DNA of 64,000 nt from Octopus sinensis (Eukaryota), in contig NC_043001.1 of assembly GCF_006345805.1 (NCBI RefSeq), positions 83,142,001 through 83,206,000 on the forward strand, given 5' to 3'. Position 1 is the first letter of the stretch. Each line of letters opens with the position of its first letter. The notes under the pieces were generated by a model. That model was not told where the DNA came from. It saw nothing but the letters and a program-made list of their open reading frames with translations, and did no database searches. Positions 12,889 to 61,300 of the stretch are shown in pieces. The position numbers were made by a program, and so were the translations under genes.

Positions 12889-13440
12889 CTCTATCGACCT
12901 GTATTTATTTATCTATTTACGAATTAAAAGCAGCGGTGTTGTAAGCATTTTCGATCGCATATACTCAATGTATGTGTTTTGCATTTTCGCCGGTTCACTG
13001 TGGGATAGGCCCTAGGAGACGACTCCCTGATAGCACTGAGTGTTAAAACACTGTAAAGTCACAGAGAGGTGAGACAACTCGCCCTCAATCCCATTCCGGA
13101 GCGATGGATACCGATATTTCACTATTATGTTTGTGGTTTAATAATCTTACGTACATGAATCAAACAGAAATGGAACAGAATTGCCAGTCTATGAATATAT
13201 ATAAATAGTGTAGAAACAATTTGTGAGTGCGCCACACTTGTAAGATTAAATTCAATTATGTATTCAAAGCAGCGCTAGTTTTATAAACATTATCGACCGC
13301 ACAAACTCAGTGCATGTGTTTTACTTGCATACACATAGACTTACACACATTTGTTACAACGCACATACATAGTTATATACCAATATACATACTTATACAT
13401 ACATACATTCACAAAAATCAACATAGGAGTCTATGAAAAA

Positions 13441-13856
13441 AGGCGGTGAGCTAGCAGAAAGATTAGCACGCCGGGCGAAATACTTAGCGTTATTTCGTCT
13501 GCCGCTATGTTCTGAGTTCAAATTCTGCCGAGGTCCACTTTGCTTTTCATCCTTTCGGGGTCGATAAATTAAGTACCAGTTACGCACTGGGGTCGATGTA
13601 ATCGACTTAATACCTATGTCTGTCCTTGTTTGTCCCCTCTGTGTTTGGCCCCTTGTGGGTAATAAAGAAATAGGTATTTCGTCTGCCGCTATGTTCTGAG
13701 TTCAAATTCCGCCGAGGTCCACTTTGCTTTTCATCCTTTCGGAGTCGATAAATTAAGTACCAGTTACGCACTAGGGTCGACATAATCGACTTAATCCTTT
13801 TGTCTGTCATTGTTTGTCCCCTCTGTGTGTAGCCCCTTGTGGGCAGTAAAGAAATA
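13441..13856 (+). mobile_element. SINE family B, head plus tandem second unit
   Basis: AGGCGGTGAGCTAGCAGAA..GAGTTCAAATTC (B-box)..TTTCATCCTTTCGGGGTCGATAAATTAAGTACC (resembles the Meta/MESC SINE domain); the body occurs twice. Confidence 0.9.
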
Positions 13857-15620: not shown

Positions 15621-15785
15621 GGAGTGGCTGTGTGGTAAGTAGCTTGCTAACCAGCCACATGGTTCCGGGTTCAGTCCCACTGCGTGGCATCTTGGGCAAG
15701 TGTCTTCTGCTATAGCCCCGGGCCGACCAATGCCTTGTGAGTGTATTTGGTAGACGGAAACTAAAAGAAGCCTGTCGTATATATG

Positions 15786-15824
<39 letters not shown>

Positions 15825-16040
15825 ATGTGTTTGTGTGTCTGTGTTTGTCCCCTCAACATGGCTTGACAACCGATGCTGGTGTGTTTACGTCCCCGTAACT
15901 TAGCGGTTCGGCAAAAGGGACCGATAGAATAAGTACTGGGCTTACAAAGATAAGTTCCGGCGTCGATTTGCTCGACTAAAGGCGGTGCTCCAGCATGGCC
16001 ACAGTCAAATGACTGAAACATGTAAAAGAGTAAAAGAGAG
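15621..16040 (+). mobile_element. SINE family A, near full length
   Basis: GGAGTGGCTGTGTGGTAAG...GGTTCAGTCCC...GTAAAAGAGTAAAAGAG. Confidence 0.92.
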
Positions 16041-16614
16041 ATATATGCGGAGAAAGCGCGCAATATCATATGTAAAAGCTTCACGTTGGTACTAAATTTA
16101 AGATTTAAAACCCTTGTAAATACGACGACGATTTAATATAAGAAGTTCACGAAAATTGCAGAAAACACATCTCCAAGCATATTCAGATTGCAGTTATAAT
16201 TGAACACTTGAAAATATAGTATTAAACATATTATAGGAATTAAAATGCAATTAAAGAAAACGCGTAAACAGAAACAAAAAATAAAATTAAAGAATACATT
16301 CTAATATAAATACATATGAAACCCTTGTTTAGTGAGACACTATAACAAGTTTATTTCGATTCGTTTATATTTTACTATAACTGCAGCACTGCTTTGTGCG
16401 TAAAATCAACGCCATTACTATATGTAGCTTTCGTTCTTCACTCTCATAAGTGCACCTTGCGTTTGAGTAATATATATTTATTTTAATATGCGTTTCGCAA
16501 TTTCTTTTCCTGTGTCTCCTTGTTTACGATAATTACGTTCTAATTTTTAGATTTTTTTTTTAAACGAAATTATCGATCTTTCTCTAAAACGAGACGAAGT
16601 GAATCATTATATGA

Positions 16615-19351: not shown

Positions 19352-20925
19352 GGAAGCACCAGGCGGTAAGGGGGACAACAGTCTCCTTAGTATAATTTTT
19401 TTTAAATGGTCATATTTCTTTATTGAGGTGTGGTCTGTACTTTTGTATGAACAGGTTTTCCTTGTTTAGGTGTTCTTGTACGGAGATTGAATCTTTGCAT
19501 TGGTATAATGGGAAGATATGAAAATTCGGCGTTTTATTACTTGCGCATTTGTTGATATGTCCTCTCAGTGCTCTCTGCCTGTATTGAGGGAAACGAATCT
19601 GTTCTTTATGCAGCGTGATACTGCGTCTCAAAGTAAGGCTCGTTTGGCCCACATAACTATGACCACAACCTGTGCAGGTTAGGACATAGAGAAGGTTCTG
19701 GGAAGCACATGTGAAGTTGGTCTTAATTGAGAATTTTTGTCTTGCTGGAATGTGAATTCCGAGCGTCCAGTTAGGTATTGGCATGTACCACAATTAGGTC
19801 GTCTGCATTTTTTAACTGTTGGTATCGTTTGTATTGAGTATAGTTCTGTATTTGTTAGGAGTCTCTTGAGTAATTTGTCCTGTCTTTTGCATTTTAGTAC
19901 TTTGTGTGTATTTAGGATGCTGTTCATTTTCGGGTCTTGAGTGAGCCGAGGGGGATTTTGTTTAATTGTGTTGTATGCTTCAATGTTTCTGGGGTTGTGG
20001 GTTGATATGTATGGGAGTGATTTAAGGTGTGGTGTGGTTTCTTTTTGTTGTCCTTAGTGTGTTTGTGTCCAATTTTTGGCACGTTTAATTTCATGTTCTG
20101 TACGTGTAGGGGGTATTGACGTTCAATGAGTGTTATTTTGAGTTCTTGTATGCGAAGTTCCCAAGTGATTGTGTCAGATACAATTGTACAGATCCTTTTT
20201 GCTAGATTGAATGGGATATTTGGTGTGTTTAGGATGGCATGAACTGAAAAGGAGATACTGTTTTGAGTCTGTTGGTTTGTAGTAAATGTCAGTTGCAATT
20301 TGGTTGTTGGACTTTTTTAAAATCAAAATGTCCAGAAATGGGAGCAGTTCCTTGCTATATCCCATCGTAAATTGGATGTTGGGGTTTATATTATTCAGTG
20401 TGGATTTGAAATCCAGGAGTTTATCATATGTTTCATTCCAGATGATAAAACAATCGTCTAGGTACCTTTTTCTTTTTCTGTCAGGCCTTTTCCATGTTTG
20501 AGTATTAATGATGCAAGATCTTTTAAGATCTTCACAAAAGGAGTCATTTTCTAGTATGGACAATGCTAGGTTTTTATAGTATTCTGTGTCAATCCCTACT
20601 ACAGCACTACATTTGTCTGCTTCTTTGATTGTCAGGTCTTTGTCGTTTTTTAGCTGTGATAGGTGCTTCCATTGTATGTTGTTGAAGTTAGGTACAATTT
20701 TTGGTTTATAGATAGTGTGAGGAAAATTCTGGATACTGTTGCAGAAGTCATCTAGTGCTTTATTCTTTCCTTTGGGTGGTAGATAATTACTTTTCTTTCT
20801 CACTAGTGATTCGCCATCGTTGTTTTAGTTGGTTAGTGATTCTGTCAATCGAAGTATTCTATAGAATTCTACAATATTGTCTTTAATTTCATTGGCGTTG
20901 GGTCTACGTGTAGTGGGTGTAAATT
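19352..20925 (-). mobile_element. Penelope-like retroelement (RT + GIY-YIG endonuclease), decayed and internally deleted; Neptune-like
   Basis: IKEADK, RYLDDCFIIW, LPFLDILI, IYYKPT (ORF 20174-20803); Cys linker KCRRPNCGTC; NLLYVLTCTGCGHSYVGQT..H..KENLFIQKYRPHLN (ORF 19410-19793); flanked by (TA)n. Confidence 0.93.
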
Positions 20926-21082
20926 TATATATATATATATATGTATATGTATATATGTATGCATGTATATTTATATATATTATATATGCTGTTGCCGCAT
21001 TATGTCGTACGCGAATGAGAGGATTTGCATCCCCAACGTAGAATTTTTGTTGTAATACATGTCCTTGAGGTAGTAGTTGTGC

Positions 21083-21160
21083 GCGGCTGAAGAAGGCCAC
21101 AGACACACATTATGCATTGTTATAAATCCGTCTAATAAAGGCACGAAACATATGTACCGC
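21083..21160 (+). ncRNA. Minimal type I hammerhead ribozyme motif
   Basis: GCGG-CUGAAGA-AG-GCC..GGC-AC-GAAA-CAUAUG-UA-CCGC: stem I GCGG/CCGC, intact core, palindromic stem III. Confidence 0.8.
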
Positions 21161-21210
21161 TGAATCCTTGGCATCATGTTTTTATTTTTATTTTGATTAA
21201 TTTATGTATG

Positions 21211-21278
<68 letters not shown>

Positions 21279-21542
21279 GTATGTATAAAGGCATAAATAA
21301 AGGGCTTTATCTATTTATTTCTGCATTGTAGACTTGTAGCTGCTTCAAAGTGCATTGCGTTTATTGTTCTGTTTAATCAATTGATCGATTGATCTACTGA
21401 AAATATAATGAACGACAGTTAGGATGGTATCGTTGTCAGTGTCCAACACAACGGCTGCCAAATTACTTGGCTCTGATGACGGTACCATTATGTGTGTGTA
21501 GGGGGGGCTGAGTGTGTGTCTGCCGCACGCGCGTGTGTGTAT

Positions 21543-21665
21543 GGCGCTCCGTCGGTTGCGACGACGAGGGTCGCAGTTGATCCGAACAAAGGAACAGCCT
21601 ACTCGTGAAATTACCGAGCAAATGACTGAACGCTTCCACAGGCACGTGTACACTTAATGTTATGT
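21543..21665 (-). mobile_element. Shared SINE 3' tail module
   Basis: Matches 43815-43960 and the reverse complement of 55960-56040 (GGCTGTTCC..GATCAACTG..TCGTCGTCG..CCGACGGAG). Confidence 0.8.
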
Positions 21666-22094
21666 TGTCATCTGAGGTCAGTGTATCAGTGTAGTTTGTT
21701 TCTGTTTTGTATTTTGTCGCCTCCTTGTGTATAGAGAAATGCCTTTTCTTTTTCTCGTGTTGCTTTACTACATGCAGTAGGTAGTCTTCCACTCTTTGAT
21801 TCTAAGTACTTCTATAGTCCAACCGTTGTTATTTTACAGTAATTCTCTATCAATATCAGGCCACGGCCACCTTCTGAGCAGGGTAGATATATTCTGTCTA
21901 CGTATGCGTTGGGATGGTATACGCTGTTTAGTAGTTTTTTTGGTTTTTCTATCTAGGTTTCTCAATTCACTGATCTCCCAGTTTATTATGTTAAAGCTGT
22001 AATTTATGACTGGCATGGCTAGCGTGTTTTTCCCTGTTATCTTATTTTTAGCATTAAGTTCAGTGTTTAATATTAGTCTAACTCTTCTGTAATA

Positions 22095-22401
22095 GAGTGG
22101 TTGTATACTGTCAACATAATGTGACAGTCCGTATGGATTACACCACCGCTGTTTAGCCCAAGGAAGCATCGACGCTTCCTGTCGGCTTTGACACATTTCC
22201 TGTGTCCTTATATTTGTGAAGGGGAGGCAAGCACCCCCACCAGCCAAGATTCACAGCTGAGGACATGCATGTTTCTGGGTCTTAACCCGTCATCAGCCCA
22301 GGATACTGAGATTTGCTGACTGAGGTGTCCGTCTAGCCTTCACAAACATATATATCTACAGTGAAATCTATTCACTGGTCACCGTAATTAGAAATATTAA
22401 A
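22095..22401 (-). mobile_element. ~307-bp structured non-coding insertion carrying a hammerhead ribozyme
   Basis: Splits the LINE frame MKEKISRAYY/RRVRL; TAATA is repeated at both junctions (22090-22094, 22402-22406); multiple hairpins. Confidence 0.8.
22257..22301 (-). ncRNA. Minimal type I hammerhead ribozyme motif
   Basis: CUGGG-CUGAUGA-C-GGGU-UAAG-ACCC-A-GAAA-CAUGCAUG-UC-CUCAG; all core nucleotides present; predicted cut after GUC (22262/22261). Confidence 0.9.
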
Positions 22402-24299
22402 TAATAAGCTCTACTAATTTTCTCTTTCATTCCTGTATGTTGTATTTTAGCTGTTTCTTCTTTTTCTAGATATTTGTATGGGCGGTTATGGTCTGATTCT
22501 GTGTCTATATCGAGTGCAGTGTTTGCAGTGCTGAATAATTTGCCTCTTGTCAGTGAGACTGGCACAATTGTCCAGCCCCATGCTCATTCAGATGTCATTG
22601 CTGATACTCAACAATTTTGATAAAGTTTTTCTGTTCTATGGTACAAGAGATGGTTATTTTTGTCCGTAGCACCTACAACCCATGGTGGTTTCGTTTAGCA
22701 AGGTTGTTAGCGGGTCAGAGAAAGGCAGAAAAGAAGGGTTGACAGTAAGTCTCCCTGGAAAATCTCTCTTCTTATGGGGTATAGGATAGGTTTTAATAAC
22801 TTGTAGGTCATTTTTTAATACTATACTGGTTTCCGGTTTGCCATTGCATACTTAATATATTTTAGTAGTGGTGGAGGCTACCTTTATTGTGTAGAGAGAT
22901 TCCAGCATCCATGAATGTGGAACACTGTCGAATGCTTTCTGGTAATCAATCAAGTCATGTTCAGGTTTGTCTTTCTCCTCTTACAGGCCTCCATAATTGC
23001 TCGGTTTACCAGAAGTTGCTCTTTATAGCCACATTTCCCTTTCCAGCACCCTTTTTGTTCTTCTGGTATGACACTGCTATTTTCCAGGTGCTTTATAAGC
23101 CGGTTATTGATGGCTGATGTTAGAGTTTTGTAGGATGTCAATAGGCATGTAACTGGTCCGTAATTTTGTGGTAGTACGGTGTCTTTGTTTTTGGGAATCA
23201 GGGCGATCTGCCCTTCCAGCATCCACTTTGGTGTTGGTTCTTATCAACAAATTGAACATGGTTATGGGTACTAGTGAGGTGTTTAACCTGAAGTTGGGGA
23301 CCTTGTCTATCCCTGGAGTTTTCCAGTTGCTGGTACTCCTCAGTGTGTCCATGATCTCTTGACCTGTGATAGTGGGCCATATCTGTTGTTCTATTGCGTT
23401 CTTCTCTTTTTCCCTTCTATACCACTCAGCATTTTTGTTGTGCTTCTTTGATCTTCTCCTTATTGCTTCCCAGTATGACTGAATCACTGACGTAGGCATG
23501 GCATCTACCGATGTAGTTTTTTAAAAACTTTCTATAAAAACATTGTGTTTTTTTTAATTCTCTATTTTGTTGAAAGAAGCGTTCCCGTTTTTCATACCGT
23601 TTCATGCAGCAAGTTTTTACTGCTATGCCCTGTTAAATTTTTTCTTTTACATCACAAGTATCTTCTTTATTTTTATGTTGTATTGTTTTGTTACATGGGC
23701 CCTTTTTTACTTTTCATATTTGATCCCTTTTTCTCTAATTCACAAAGTAGCGAAAAGTCTTTCTTTTGTTTTTGAATTTTATTTATGATCTGTTTTCATT
23801 TTGTGGTTTGAGATTTGGCTGGGATTTTTTCCTTGTAAAGATCAAGTCTAGTTTCCCTGGATATCACTACAGCTGTTGAGTAGATCAAGTCATTTAGTTT
23901 GCTGCTATCTAGTGTATCTTTTGATATGGTCATTATTACTTGTAAGGCTCTGTTGTATATATCCTTTCTTAGAACTGTTTATTTTTTTGTAGCCTGCGGA
24001 GACGTTTACGCTGCTCCATATTTATCGACTGTGTGATGTCTAGTTCTTTTACTTCTGTTATTTCTTCACTAGGTTCGTCTCTGTCCTCGGTTATAACTCA
24101 TCTGCTTTGGTATGTGTTATTTTTGTTGTTGTTTTGCGCTTTAGTATTCGCTTGTGTATGTTGTTGATATGCTGTGCTAATCTATTTATTTCAGGGTTGG
24201 GTAGCTATACAGAGATTTTACTTTGGTTTAGCCGTTTATTTACTGTTTGCAGTGATATCTCTGTTGTGTTCTCTTCTTTCCTTTCTGGAGTTTTATGCG

Positions 24300-24460
24300 T
24301 TTTCGGAGATAATTCAGTTCTTGTCCAATCTACAAAAGCTGCTGAGTATCTGAGTAATAATACTGCCCTAGTATTTACAGCCTTCACTAGATTCAGACCA
24401 TTTAGCTTTGACTTCATTAGCCTCCTCAGTTTTCGTTTTCATTTCTATGTTTTTATCATT
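24300..24460 (-). pseudogene. Fragment of a second R4-clade RT
   Basis: MKSKLNGLNLVKAVNTRAVLLLRYSAAFVDWTRTEL covers the same domain as 21950-22090, so it comes from a different element. Confidence 0.75.
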
Positions 24461-24469
24461 GTATTTCTC

Positions 24470-24863
24470 CCGTCGCTACGTTTTGAGTTCGAGTTCCGCC
24501 AAGGTCGACTTCGCCTTTCACCCTTTCAGTATCGATAAATAAAGTACCAATGAAACACTAGGGTCGATGTAATCGACTATTCCCCCCCCCAAAAAAAATT
24601 CCAGGCCTTGTGCCTTTAATAGAAAGGATTACTGTTATCATTATTATTAAAGCGGCGAGCTGGCAGAATCGTTAGCGTGTTGGGTAAAATGCTTAGCGGC
24701 ATTTAGTTCGTCTTTTCGTTTTGAGACCCAATTCCTACGATGTCGACTTTGCCATTCATCATTTCGGGGTCGATAAAATAAGTACCAGTCGAGCACTAGG
24801 GATAACGTAATTTACTTACTCCCTTTCCTCGAACTAGCTGGCATTGTTCCAAAATTTGAAACC
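24470..24863 (+). mobile_element. Two SINE family B copies
   Basis: GTCGACTTCGCCTTTCACCCTTTC and GCGGCGAGCTGGCAGAATCGTTAGC..GTCGATAAAATAAGTACC. Confidence 0.85.
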
Positions 24864-24881
24864 AATATATAGATACATAAA

Positions 24882-25258
24882 TCTCTCTATATATAAACGG
24901 CAGTTTGTCTGTGTGCGTTTCTGTGTGTCTGTTAGGTTGTACCCTCACCCTGACCACGGCTTTCAACCGATTCTTAATGAAACTTAACACACACATAGCC
25001 CAATGTCATAATTCAAAACTAACGCAGAGAAAATTTTGAAAAGTTCCCCCAGTTCTGAAAAAAATCGATAAATTCGACATGGGGTCGAGAATCAGAAACA
25101 CAAACCACAGACTGTCTAGGGGACGCAACTCGACCGTTTTAACTCTCAAAAAAAAATTTACCATAATTTTTTTTCCATTTTTTTTGGCTATAACTCTCTA
25201 AAAATGCTTTATAGTTATTTCCCTTACAAACCCGAGCAACGCCGGGCGATACTGCTAG
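24882..25258 (+). mobile_element. Non-autonomous Helitron
   Basis: A|TC start (TCTCTCTATATATAAA), 3' hairpin CCCGAGCAACGCCGGG, terminal CTAG|T, no TSD. Confidence 0.85.
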
Positions 25259-35727: not shown

Positions 35728-37310
35728 CCAGCATCATCATCATCACCAGCATCATCATCATTGTCCAATGTTTGATTCCCATGCCGGTATGGGTTGGAAA
35801 ATCTGGATGCAAGAATGTCTCTATGTATATACATACATACACACATGCATATATCTTATGGTTCCAGAATTTTGCTATGAAGTGTTGTTCCATATTTTTT
35901 CTGAAGAAGGCGTCTGTAGTTTTCTACCCAGTGTTTTATCGCCTCCAGACCCAGGGTGTGTGGTATGTACGTGTATAAGTTTGTCACATCGAAGCTTGCA
36001 AGTATGGTGTTTTCTGGAACCGTACTTGGAATGTGTGTGAGAAAGTCTGTCATCCCTTATGTAGCTTGGTATCAGTGGGCATAAAGGTTTGAGGAGTACA
36101 TCTATGAAGTGGCTTAGTTGTGTTGGTGCTTGGGGTCCTGCCACTATTGGTCTCATTGTGAGGTATGTGGGCCTTTGTATTCTTATATAATGGCTGCTCT
36201 ATTCTTTTATGGCTCTCTGTATTTCAGAGCTTTTATGAATTTTAGGCAGTCTACAAAAATTGCTTTCTTTGGTTCTTGAGTTGCATAGATAGGCTTTCTC
36301 CTTGTCTGTAAAAGAATCCTGGTATTCATTGACTAATGTTCCGAAATTTTTAATGTTGCTTTCTCCGGTTGTGTTGATTCCTCTTTATAGTATGTCTGGT
36401 TGTTAAGAATATCTAGTATATTTTCTTTCTAGTAATCTGTATCCATAATCACTATTGCTCCACGTTTGTCAGCTTCTTTTAAGACGTTCGACTTGTCATT
36501 TTTTAAAGTTTTTGTAAAGCTTGTTTTTCTCCTCTGTGGAGGTTCTCTTTGCATTTATGTGTGTTGAGAGGGAATTTGGAGATTGTCTCTATGTATGTGT
36601 CTAGGTGTCTGTCAAATCTCCTTGTAAGGGGTGAATTGGGATTTTTGTCTTATGATTGAGTGATCTTCTGTTCCCTTATTTTCAAAGAATTCCATAAAGC
36701 AGAGGCGGCGGCTTAAGTTATATATATCAGTTTTTAGTTCTATGAGATTTTGAGTGGGTGTGGATGTAAATTTGAGGCCTTTTAGTAGTAGGTTCAGCTC
36801 ATTTTCGCTAAGTTCTCATTTAGATAGGTTTATTATTTTGGAGTCTGTGTGTTCATTCGGAATTTTTGGTATGTTGGATCTGGAGTATGGTTGCAGTATC
36901 CTTTCCCTAAAAAGTGGTTGTGTTGTTGCGTCTCCAACTTCCATTTTCAGGTTTTTAAAAATATTCTTTCTTTATCTCCTGTTCAAAACACTTCCTTTCA
37001 GATACACAGGCACACACACACACACACACACAGACACACACACACACACACCACACACACACATACCCACACACACACACGCACGCACACACACACACAC
37101 TCACACTCAAACACACACATTCATTCTCACTTTCTCCGTCCACTATCTCTCCATTTCTCTCCCTCTTTTCCTACCCTTTACACTCCACATTACCCTTCTT
37201 TTCCCCCTCTCTCTCTCCACCCCAACCCATTCACTAATACTATAAAAAGAGACAAATCCTTTCACACAATTGAAATCTGAAGAATCTATTAGAGTAAATT
37301 AGAATATTTG
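35050..37310 (-). mobile_element. Penelope-like element remnant (N-terminus and RT start) bounded by ~300-bp inverted pseudo-LTRs
   Basis: LLLKGLKFTSTP, KEADK, RPIVAGPQAPT, YIRD..DFL, LASFDVTNLYTYIPHTLGLEAI (35856-36850); 35060-35355 is the reverse complement of 36960-37297. Confidence 0.88.
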
Positions 37311-41517: not shown

Positions 41518-41647
41518 TATAGTCGACAATATTTAAATACTGAGGCAAAATTTGAACTCTGTACCCAAAGAAATGAGACAGATGCGGCCAGATATCAAGT
41601 ACCACGCTCTTATATTTCTGCTAAGACACTACTGTGCATTGTTACTC

Positions 41648-42042
41648 TCTCTTTTACTCTTTTACTTGTTTCAGTCATTTGACTGCGGCCATGCTGGAGC
41701 ACCACCTTTAATCGAGCAACTCGACACCGGGACTTATTCTTTTGTAAGCCCAGTACTTATTCTATCGGTCTCTTTTGCCGAACCGCTAAGTAACGGGGAC
41801 ATAAACACACCAGCATCGGTTGTCAAGCAATGCTAGGGGGACAAACACAGACACACAAACACACACACGCATATATATACATATATACGACGGGCTTCTT
41901 TCAGTTTCCGTCTACCAAATCCACTCACAAGGCATTGGTCGGCCCGAGGCTATAGTAGAAGACACTTGCCCAAGGTGCCACGCAGTGGGACTGAACCCGG
42001 AACCATGTGGTTGGTAAACAAGCTACTTACCACACAGCCACT
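41648..42042 (-). mobile_element. SINE family A with target-site duplication
   Basis: CACTACTGTGCATTG at 41627-41641 and 42039-42053. Confidence 0.92.
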
Positions 42043-60416: not shown

Positions 60417-61300
60417 TTCTTTCTAGTAGAAGCATAAGGCCTCATCTTTAGGGGGAGGGATTAAATCAATTACATCGACCCCAGTGCGTAACTGGTACGT
60501 AATTTATCGACCCCGAAGTGATGAAATGCGAAGTCGACCCCGACGGCATTTGAACTCTGAATGTAGCGGCAGATGAAATACCGATAAGCATTTCGCCCGG
60601 CATGCTAACGATTCTTATTTCTTTACTACCCACAAAGGGCTACACACAGAGGTGACATACAAGGACAGACAAACGGATTATATCGACCCCAGTGCGTAAC
60701 TGGTACTTATTTAATCGACCCCGAAAGGATGAAAGGCAAAGTCGACCTCGGCGGCATTTGAACTCAGAACGTAGTGGCAGACGAAATACCTTTTTCTTTA
60801 CTGCCCACAAGGGGCTACACACAGAGGGGACAAACAAGGACAGACGAACGGATTAAGTCGATTATATCGACCCTAGTGTGTAAATGGTACTTATTTAATC
60901 GACCCCAAAATGATGAAAGGCAAAGTCGACCTCGGCGGAATTTGAGCTCAGAACGCAGCGGCGGACGAAATACCAGAAAGCATTTCGCCCGGCGTGATAA
61001 CGATTCTGCCAGTTCACCACCTTATTGAACAATAACAATAATAATGATAATCTTTTCTACTAAAGGCACAAGGTGTGAAATTTTTGTGGTAGGGGATAAG
61101 CCCATTACATCGACCCCCAGTGTTTCATTGGTATTTAATTTATCATCCCGAAAGGATGAAAGAGCAAAGTCGATCTCGGTGGAATTTGAATTCAGAACGC
61201 AAGGACGGACGAAATGCCGCTTAATGTTTTGCCTGCCGTGCTAACGATTCGGCTACCTCGCCGCCTTAATAATAATAATAATATAATATATAATAAAATA

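Follow-up and report, generated by a model that had tools for sequence, protein, structure and literature searches.

A 307-bp non-coding insert interrupts the reverse transcriptase (RT) frame of a degenerate long interspersed nuclear element (LINE) in a 64,000-nt stretch of Octopus sinensis DNA (RefSeq assembly GCF_006345805.1, contig NC_043001.1, positions 83,142,001 to 83,206,000 of the forward strand), hereafter termed the window. It is highly probable that this insert is a copy of an abundant 353-nt non-coding repeat bearing a hammerhead motif, likely inserted in trans by the proteins of a Penelope-like element (PLE), and that many further copies of this repeat harbour Tx1-like LINEs, lodged specifically in the 5′ arm of hammerhead stem I. 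Copy number, repeat period, end structure, covariation, Tx1 junctions and LINE identity were observed directly.

The window insert belongs to a multicopy 353-nt unit

On the minus strand, which carries all features of the insert and its host described here, the order of elements is TATTA (22406-22402), insert (22401-22095, 307 bp) and TATTA (22094-22090). The letters confirm that the limits 22095-22401 given in the initial annotation are exact and that the LINE frame is split there, as the host frame ...MKEKISRAYY rejoins at RRVRLILNTELNAK... with 0 stops once the insert and one TATTA are removed. The TAATA/TATTA repeat annotated at both junctions is likewise present, although the 5-bp duplication is partly microhomology, since the unit's own 3′ end continues TAT and an A precedes its 5′ end. 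Thus, the last A of the 5′ copy (22402-22406) is possibly element-derived and the TAT of the 3′ copy (22090-22094) also fits the element's own end.

A DNA search of the source genome with the insert returned 2098 first-look candidates, and a search with the 3′ part returned 2415. In each unit search 40 candidates were scored, with the top copies displaying 88-100% identity; the sequence is multicopy, so the objection that it might be single-copy falls. An exact 35-nt core pattern matched the genome 38 times, against 0 matches in the control. Copies join head to tail with a period of 353 nt and without an open reading frame (ORF) between them in two families, termed A and B. The full unit presents 45.6% GC and a longest ATG ORF of 63-68 aa. 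The window copy (22095-22401) belongs to family A and is 96% identical to the natural full unit at L002:710-1062 (L numbers designate loci). Counted as 311 nt, the copy runs from unit position 1 to 314, has lost 3 nt internally and is missing 39 nt of the 3′ tail; the 307-bp insert between the duplications corresponds to unit positions of about 2-311. The annotated length of ~307 bp is therefore that of the insert and not of the full unit, whose period and PLE tail had been missed. Family B (2980 first-look candidates) displays the same period and the same order of hairpins, and more families, labelled C, D and B2 in this analysis, turned up in flanks.

Hammerhead motif and conserved fold

The type I hammerhead motif of the window copy (22257-22301) comprises stem I CUGGG/CUCAG, CUGAUGA (22296-22290), a C.A under stem II, stem II GGGU-UAAG-ACCC, GAAA and a palindromic stem III, CAUGCAUG, with a predicted cleavage site at 22262/22261. 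All elements of the core initially described as complete and intact are present, but the core is not canonical, as C.A replaces G10.1-C11.1. No hammerhead was scored by Rfam at E ≤ 1 over 20000-25000. The minimum free energy (MFE) structure of the window-copy monomer contains no three-way hammerhead junction, and the dimer is predicted to pair through the palindromic stem III.

The rod and the four hairpins noted initially were found both in the sequence and in the MFE fold. The rod prolongs stem I over ~140 nt (22210-22350), its distal stem I helix being weakened by two point changes in the window copy. The hairpins are CAGTGAA/TTCACTG (22359-22377), found by folding, and three that are also helices of the structure assessed across copies: GACACA/TGTGTC (22190-22206; helix 5), kept across families, the two-part AGCC-AGGAAGC/GCTTCCT-GGCT (22155-22187; helices 6 and 7) and the terminal CTGTCA/TGACAG (22108-22127; helix 8). 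The fold of the window copy has a z-score of -4.6 on the hammerhead strand and -3.2 on the other, with 0 of 100 shuffles as good on either. For the full unit, folding energy fails to choose a strand (z of -7.1/-9.9 on one versus -8.7/-7.8 on the other); folded as a circle, the unit is 68% paired (z of -9.9).

Conservation of this structure was assessed on an alignment of 22 natural copies displaying 50-93% identity, hand-picked from 44 cluster representatives with rearranged ones omitted. A structure drawn by eye pairs in 90.1% of 827 cells, with compensatory changes on both sides in 21 of 38 pairs, a number matched by 0 of 500 shuffles, while slid controls pair in 26-43%; the set was self-chosen, the structure was drawn from the same sequences and the shuffles ignore relatedness, which inflates these counts. 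Unaided, RNAalifold recovered stems I and II and the 3′ hairpins, with 18 of 34 pairs compensatory. All five pairs of proximal stem I covary, and stem III is palindromic over 4-8 nt in sequences and lengths that vary across copies. The fold is thus kept among diverged relatives, in agreement with the structural constraint suggested by the initial annotation. Part of the stretch is contained in 20 of 24 sequencing-run entries, which bear four organism labels. Contigs of four presumed RNA runs (three from organism A, one from organism B) span the unit, with much greater depth in the 3′ half; they are no evidence of expression, because they give neither strand, level nor ends and are confounded by 5′-truncated copies and diverged families.

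Family D (L204, L206, L208, L210, L211, L215, L225, L226 and L231) displays the reverse trade-off to families A and B: its G10.1-C11.1 pair is canonical, while its core has U3, and position 8 is A or G. A second hammerhead-like motif lies in another context in the window (7663-7611, minus strand). It is a weak profile match (E-value of 0.005) with a near-palindromic stem III, and C.A is again found under stem II.

Unit ends display the hallmarks of Penelope-like insertion

A census of family A ends covered 68 distinct loci, 22 of 90 having been dropped as duplicates. The 3′ ends of 64 of the 68 fall at two sites ~55 nt apart (31 at site 1 and 33 at site 2). An inverted 5′ arm is present in 32 loci and 28 are longer than one unit. 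A microsatellite adjoins 31 loci, and 20 of the 37 others display duplications of 9-16 bp under a lenient match. When both outer ends of an inverted locus lie at a site, one arm ends at each in 24 of 26 cases, and in 14 of 15 cases in the subset not found with the tail query. In the window copy, site 1 corresponds to the AC-rich ACAACCACTC (22092-22105), while unit positions 1-16 (22387-22402) represent the end of the preceding repeat's 55-nt tail, that is, site 2. These features match the PLE insertion hallmarks described by Craig et al. (PMC8557442). By analogy with the two internal RT starts, and the nicking of both strands in AT-rich DNA, reported by Frangieh et al. (PMC11167929), site 1 may be the first start site of reverse transcription. 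Being multicopy, non-coding and covarying, with PLE-type ends, the unit bears out its initial classification as a "retrozyme-like or PLE-dependent non-autonomous element", and it is, judging from its sequence, likely a retrozyme-like element mobilised by a PLE.

The RNA template is the only point at which this reading differs from a classical retrozyme lacking long terminal repeats (non-LTR retrozyme), in which cleavage of monomers would give a 353-nt circle copied by rolling-circle reverse transcription. In size, 45.6% GC and paired circular fold the unit matches the mussel and axolotl retrozymes described in PMC7229834, copies extend across the cleavage site (twice in L017 and L019), and rare variants are common to tandem pieces slightly more often than expected by chance (9 in 2994 columns, against 0.062% for pieces from separate loci). 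However, 4 of these 9 variants come from L009, probably a local duplication, and L017 has tandem units with four differences, at each of which the inverted arm sides with unit 2; because its units differ, L017 speaks against a single monomer circle. In addition, loci with two ribozymes are rare (2 of 68, and 3 genome-wide), and uncleaved RNA was the main template of a PLE in vitro (PMC11167929). A circular monomer template is therefore possible but doubtful, and an uncleaved multimeric template with rare dimer cleavage is favoured.

A different origin would make the unit the pseudo-LTR of an unsampled autonomous PLE family, short copies then being 5′-truncated PLE insertions. Its ends, tail and inversions are indeed those of PLE pseudo-LTRs (PMC8557442), and the reading covered ~120 loci out of thousands of copies, with 90 loci out of tens of thousands of matches to PLE ORFs. 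A single weak lead to a partner was found at L243:535-1300, where a GIY-YIG C-terminal remnant and a 650-bp AT-rich spacer directly precede a truncated family B copy; this spacer occurs in no other locus read. Against such an origin, the unit joins to itself head to tail at a fixed 353 nt, with no ORF between copies and none starting with ATG above 63-68 aa. None of 123 unit loci runs into a common PLE ORF, the PLE matches seen there being unrelated neighbours or remnants that the unit interrupts. The concern that the unit might always be an ordinary terminal repeat joined to an ORF thus falls for these loci, and we consider a pseudo-LTR origin improbable.

A genome search for RT-GIY-YIG ORFs gave 32293 candidates, and intact ones exist that have a hammerhead, a tail and (TA)n flanks of their own; octopus proteins are among the PLE homologues. 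Intact Neptune-like PLEs (3′ ends of L061-L090 and L293-L322) display hammerheads with a core of the U3-A8 type and a palindromic stem III, tails of 30-40 nt and (TA)n flanks, and one Neptune-like family weakly resembles the site 1 motif of the unit. A second PLE group (L122:1095-3350; L263-L292) is abundant and young (17022 candidates), with long asparagine-rich linkers; no hammerhead with a palindromic stem III was found within 1.5 kb of its GIY-YIG end.

Tx1-like LINEs occupy the stem I arm of other copies

In the window copy, the 5′ arm of stem I (22297-22326) is an empty site, with no Tx1 match anywhere in the window. Occupied sites were first signalled by two loci in which the unit gives way, after position 99, to one shared foreign sequence, a 1.67-kb element with a single ORF1 containing a zinc knuckle and with a 21-bp duplication of the unit on its flanks. 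A query with this ORF1-only element gave 340 candidates; the best 30 represent 27 distinct loci, 21 of which are flanked by the unit. A homologue search with the ORF1 fragment among longer proteins found nothing. The pattern AATAAAGA-N14-36-CTGATGACRRG matched the genome 88 times versus 7 in the control, 3 of 30 loci read being chance matches; the spacing between AATAAAGA and the core falls into clusters of 28-32 and 19-22 nt. Full two-ORF LINEs of ~5.3 kb also lie upstream of the hammerhead core. Their ORF2 matches that of Xenopus Tx1 (E-value of 7.6e-63; 31% over 92%) and they contain the Pfam domains RVT_1, zf-RVT and zf-CCHC, while an apurinic/apyrimidinic (AP) endonuclease appears in the Pfam lists of homologues and was unscored on the partial frame scanned. 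Domain content and ORF2 homology point to Tx1-like LINEs.

With a query restricted to the LINE, 3′ ends among the best 30 of 489 candidates lie on the unit in 27 cases, on a duplicated target followed by Tx1 in 2 and elsewhere in 1. Autonomous 3′ ends at the site thus number 29 of 30, with duplications of 10-22 bp, and both this value and the 21 of 27 for ORF1-only elements lie above the >20% of flanks of one target type taken to define target specificity in PMC4494074. The wider set of families and this targeting had been missed in the initial annotation.

LINE copies are 95-97% identical whatever the family of the target, while the target groups (B, D and A-like) are only 52-62% alike. A LINE tree of 26 rows, poorly resolved and with target labels assigned by eye, shows no clustering by target (8-9 changes, with a shuffled mean of 8.2-8.6), and at least five clusters of LINE 3′ ends use the stem I site. 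Copies truncated at their 5′ end display unit and duplication on both sides (L126, L197, L218, L231 and L232), and tandem Tx1 copies are divided by one duplication (L185, L189, L217, L228, L135 and L137). Taken together, the truncated copies with duplications, the tandems split by a duplication and the closely similar LINEs in diverged targets argue for repeated independent insertion. Were Tx1 not target-specific, one or a few old insertions into the unit would have been amplified by hitch-hiking on PLE copying. Composites are demonstrably re-copied, as inverted arms with PLE-type ends include Tx1 sequence (L129, L134, L109 and L017), and several family A loci share one junction. The identity of a single LINE family across B, D and A-like targets, the lack of target clustering and the number of 3′-end clusters nevertheless oppose hitch-hiking, and the five truncated loci, which duplicate the local target, largely refute it, making it highly improbable. 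The downstream ribozyme motif survives Tx1 insertion, since the 5′ arm of stem I is retained in the duplication.

ORF1-only copies outside the unit (L125, L127, L139, L146 and L149) often continue with 4-8 target-like nt and then diverge, a hint that read-through RNA was used for priming. The 5′ flank of the element in L146 presumably resembles the start of U1 small nuclear RNA (snRNA), as in chimeric retrocopies. At the family B site, L190 and L191 (G000:C23, 5346 bp apart) have identical junctions with yet a further element whose end is AATAAAGA, probably reflecting segmental duplication.

Evaluation and proposed mechanism

Besides the self-chosen covariation set, several observations weigh against PLE-driven insertion of the unit and its specific targeting by Tx1. 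Among 90 PLE-ORF loci (30 Neptune-like with intact ORF, 30 of the second group and 30 from GIY-YIG, with queries covering two PLE groups only), none has the unit as a terminal repeat and three hold a separate, unlinked copy. As neither the 90 PLE loci nor the 123 unit loci tie the unit to a PLE ORF, we infer mobilisation in trans by a PLE. The unit's tail of ~55 nt is longer than the published 30-40 nt. The pair at 10.1-11.1 is highly conserved according to PMC4209133, so that with C.A in its place cleavage in families A and B may be weak or absent. Dimers with two cores are rare (3 loci genome-wide by the exact pattern, plus L019), and the same genome-wide pattern, applied to family A only, revealed no arrays beyond dimers, although the assembly may collapse arrays. 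Regarding Tx1, 6 of the 27 ORF1-only loci lack the unit. The counts cover the 30 candidates with the best scores out of 489 and out of 340, so target specificity may be lower among older copies. Furthermore, three B-target rows group with one A row in the ORF1-only tree, and some occupied loci are composite copies and not independent insertions.

In the mechanism that we propose, a multimeric, mostly uncleaved transcript would fold as a rod with hairpins and be bound by a PLE RT/GIY-YIG protein. This protein would nick AT-rich DNA on both strands and prime internally at site 1 or site 2, giving 5′-truncated partial tandems and head-to-head insertions that end one arm at each site. The ribozyme would act only as a dimer, via the palindromic stem III, and rarely. 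Tx1 ORF2 would then nick ~17-32 nt upstream of the core and start target-primed reverse transcription with a duplication of 10-22 bp, which would rebuild stem I and so keep both the target and the downstream ribozyme motif. Such targeting may be led by the endonuclease, through a loose local motif (often ATC at the nick) and a further determinant, which could be the palindromic rod as DNA or read-through RNA. Read-through of Tx1 into the unit, with transcription driven by the Tx1 promoter, would finally provide composite templates for re-copying by the PLE machinery. A more speculative extension, which we regard as rather unlikely, is that Tx1 homes on the hammerhead by structure or RNA guidance and not by a fixed DNA sequence, that the host ribozyme forms the Tx1 3′ end and that a promoter is traded for PLE transport, resulting in a four-level system of PLE, retrozyme, Tx1 and ORF1-only Tx1 that possibly extends to other animals with PLE-type hammerheads.

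Host LINE and neighbouring features of the window

The degenerate RT frames of the host LINE extend over approximately 21834-23520. Pfam scored RVT_1 only, weakly (E-value of 0.01), and the atlas gave weak unrelated matches only. The "R4-type" frame of the initial annotation is thus split as claimed, while its R4 label received no confirmation from any tool; going by its motif, the LINE may be of the R4 clade. Degenerate remnants of PLEs, with fragments of RT and GIY-YIG and an identity of 37-54% to a full-length PLE protein, lie at 19410-20930 and 35900-36840 on the minus strand. The former was considered as a partner of the insert and rejected as merely a neighbour, since LINE and short interspersed nuclear element (SINE) sequence lies between them. 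Dispersed SINE-like families of 300-450 bp, 75-90% identical within the window, occur at positions including 1838-2242, 13437-13856, 15623-16041, 41646-42042 and 60456-61026.

Comparison with known systems

The insert represents a real, new family of a known kind; the new part is the site-specific association of Tx1 with diverged ribozyme families. Hammerheads in PLE repeats are known (PMC4209133), 235 hammerhead matches were counted in a squid genome (PMC6962438), and the main text of PMC7229834 makes no mention of cephalopod, octopus or squid. The paper searches made gave no report of such units in cephalopods, nor of Tx1 targeting a hammerhead or retrozyme, although the families may already be recorded in Repbase, Dfam, supplements or subscription papers. 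The insertion anatomy, with two starts and one per arm in head-to-head copies, ties retrozyme-like units to PLE enzymology. In an invertebrate it tests, and agrees with, the recent suggestion that the retrozymes of animals derive from PLEs and are non-autonomous (Li et al. 2026; 10.64898/2026.07.22.740005). The targets of site-specific LINEs now include a ribozyme-bearing retroelement. With a single young LINE family inserting at one structural position in targets that are only 52-62% alike, the system offers a direct handle on site choice by the Tx1 endonuclease or ribonucleoprotein, a question that bears on the use of site-specific retrotransposons as insertion tools. For the tolerance of the hammerhead core, a ready panel is provided by natural variants, C.A versus G-C and C3-G8 versus U3-A8.

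Published retrozyme units span 350-390 nt in mussel and 150-450 nt among non-LTR retrozymes (Cervera and de la Pena 2020, PMC7229834; 10.64898/2026.07.22.740005). The octopus unit displays retrozyme traits in its hammerhead motif with covarying stems (in the C.A variant unscored by Rfam), its 353 nt, 45.6% GC and ORFs of at most 68 aa, and it resembles metazoan non-LTR retrozymes in being non-coding, within 150-450 nt, below 50% GC and highly paired, with a type I hammerhead and co-occurring PLEs. In contrast to them, it is found mostly as 1-1.8-mers with inverted arms and without long arrays, carries C.A under stem II and has a clear PLE tail with two end sites. Self-cleavage and accumulation of circular RNA also mark such retrozymes, and the octopus unit may or may not share them. 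With the pseudo-LTRs of endonuclease-containing (EN+) PLEs (PMC8557442, PMC11167929, PMC4209133) it shares partial tandems, an inverted 5′-truncated arm, a tail at one end, AT-rich or (TA)n targets, an AC-rich internal start and a palindromic stem III. It differs in having no ORF, a ~55-nt tail and a long rod beyond stem I, and its sequence matches none of the terminal repeats belonging to PLE families that were read in the octopus genome.

Known Tx1 targets include other transposons, U2 snRNA and microsatellites, with Tx1L in Tx1D, Keno in U2 snRNA and both Tx1-Mar and SINEU-3 in Mariner-N4_AMi (Kojima 2015; PMC4494074). Similar to this target-specific clade, the octopus LINEs display an ORF1 zinc knuckle, an ORF2 RT with zf-RVT, a fixed site in a multicopy repeat, tandem re-insertion split by a duplication and non-autonomous passengers. 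The passengers keep ORF1, unlike those of the known clade, and we take them to be comparable with half-L1 elements. Also in contrast with known Tx1 elements, the target is a hammerhead stem I arm whose local sequence differs strongly between families, and the LINE is re-copied by its host repeat, a retroelement in its own right.
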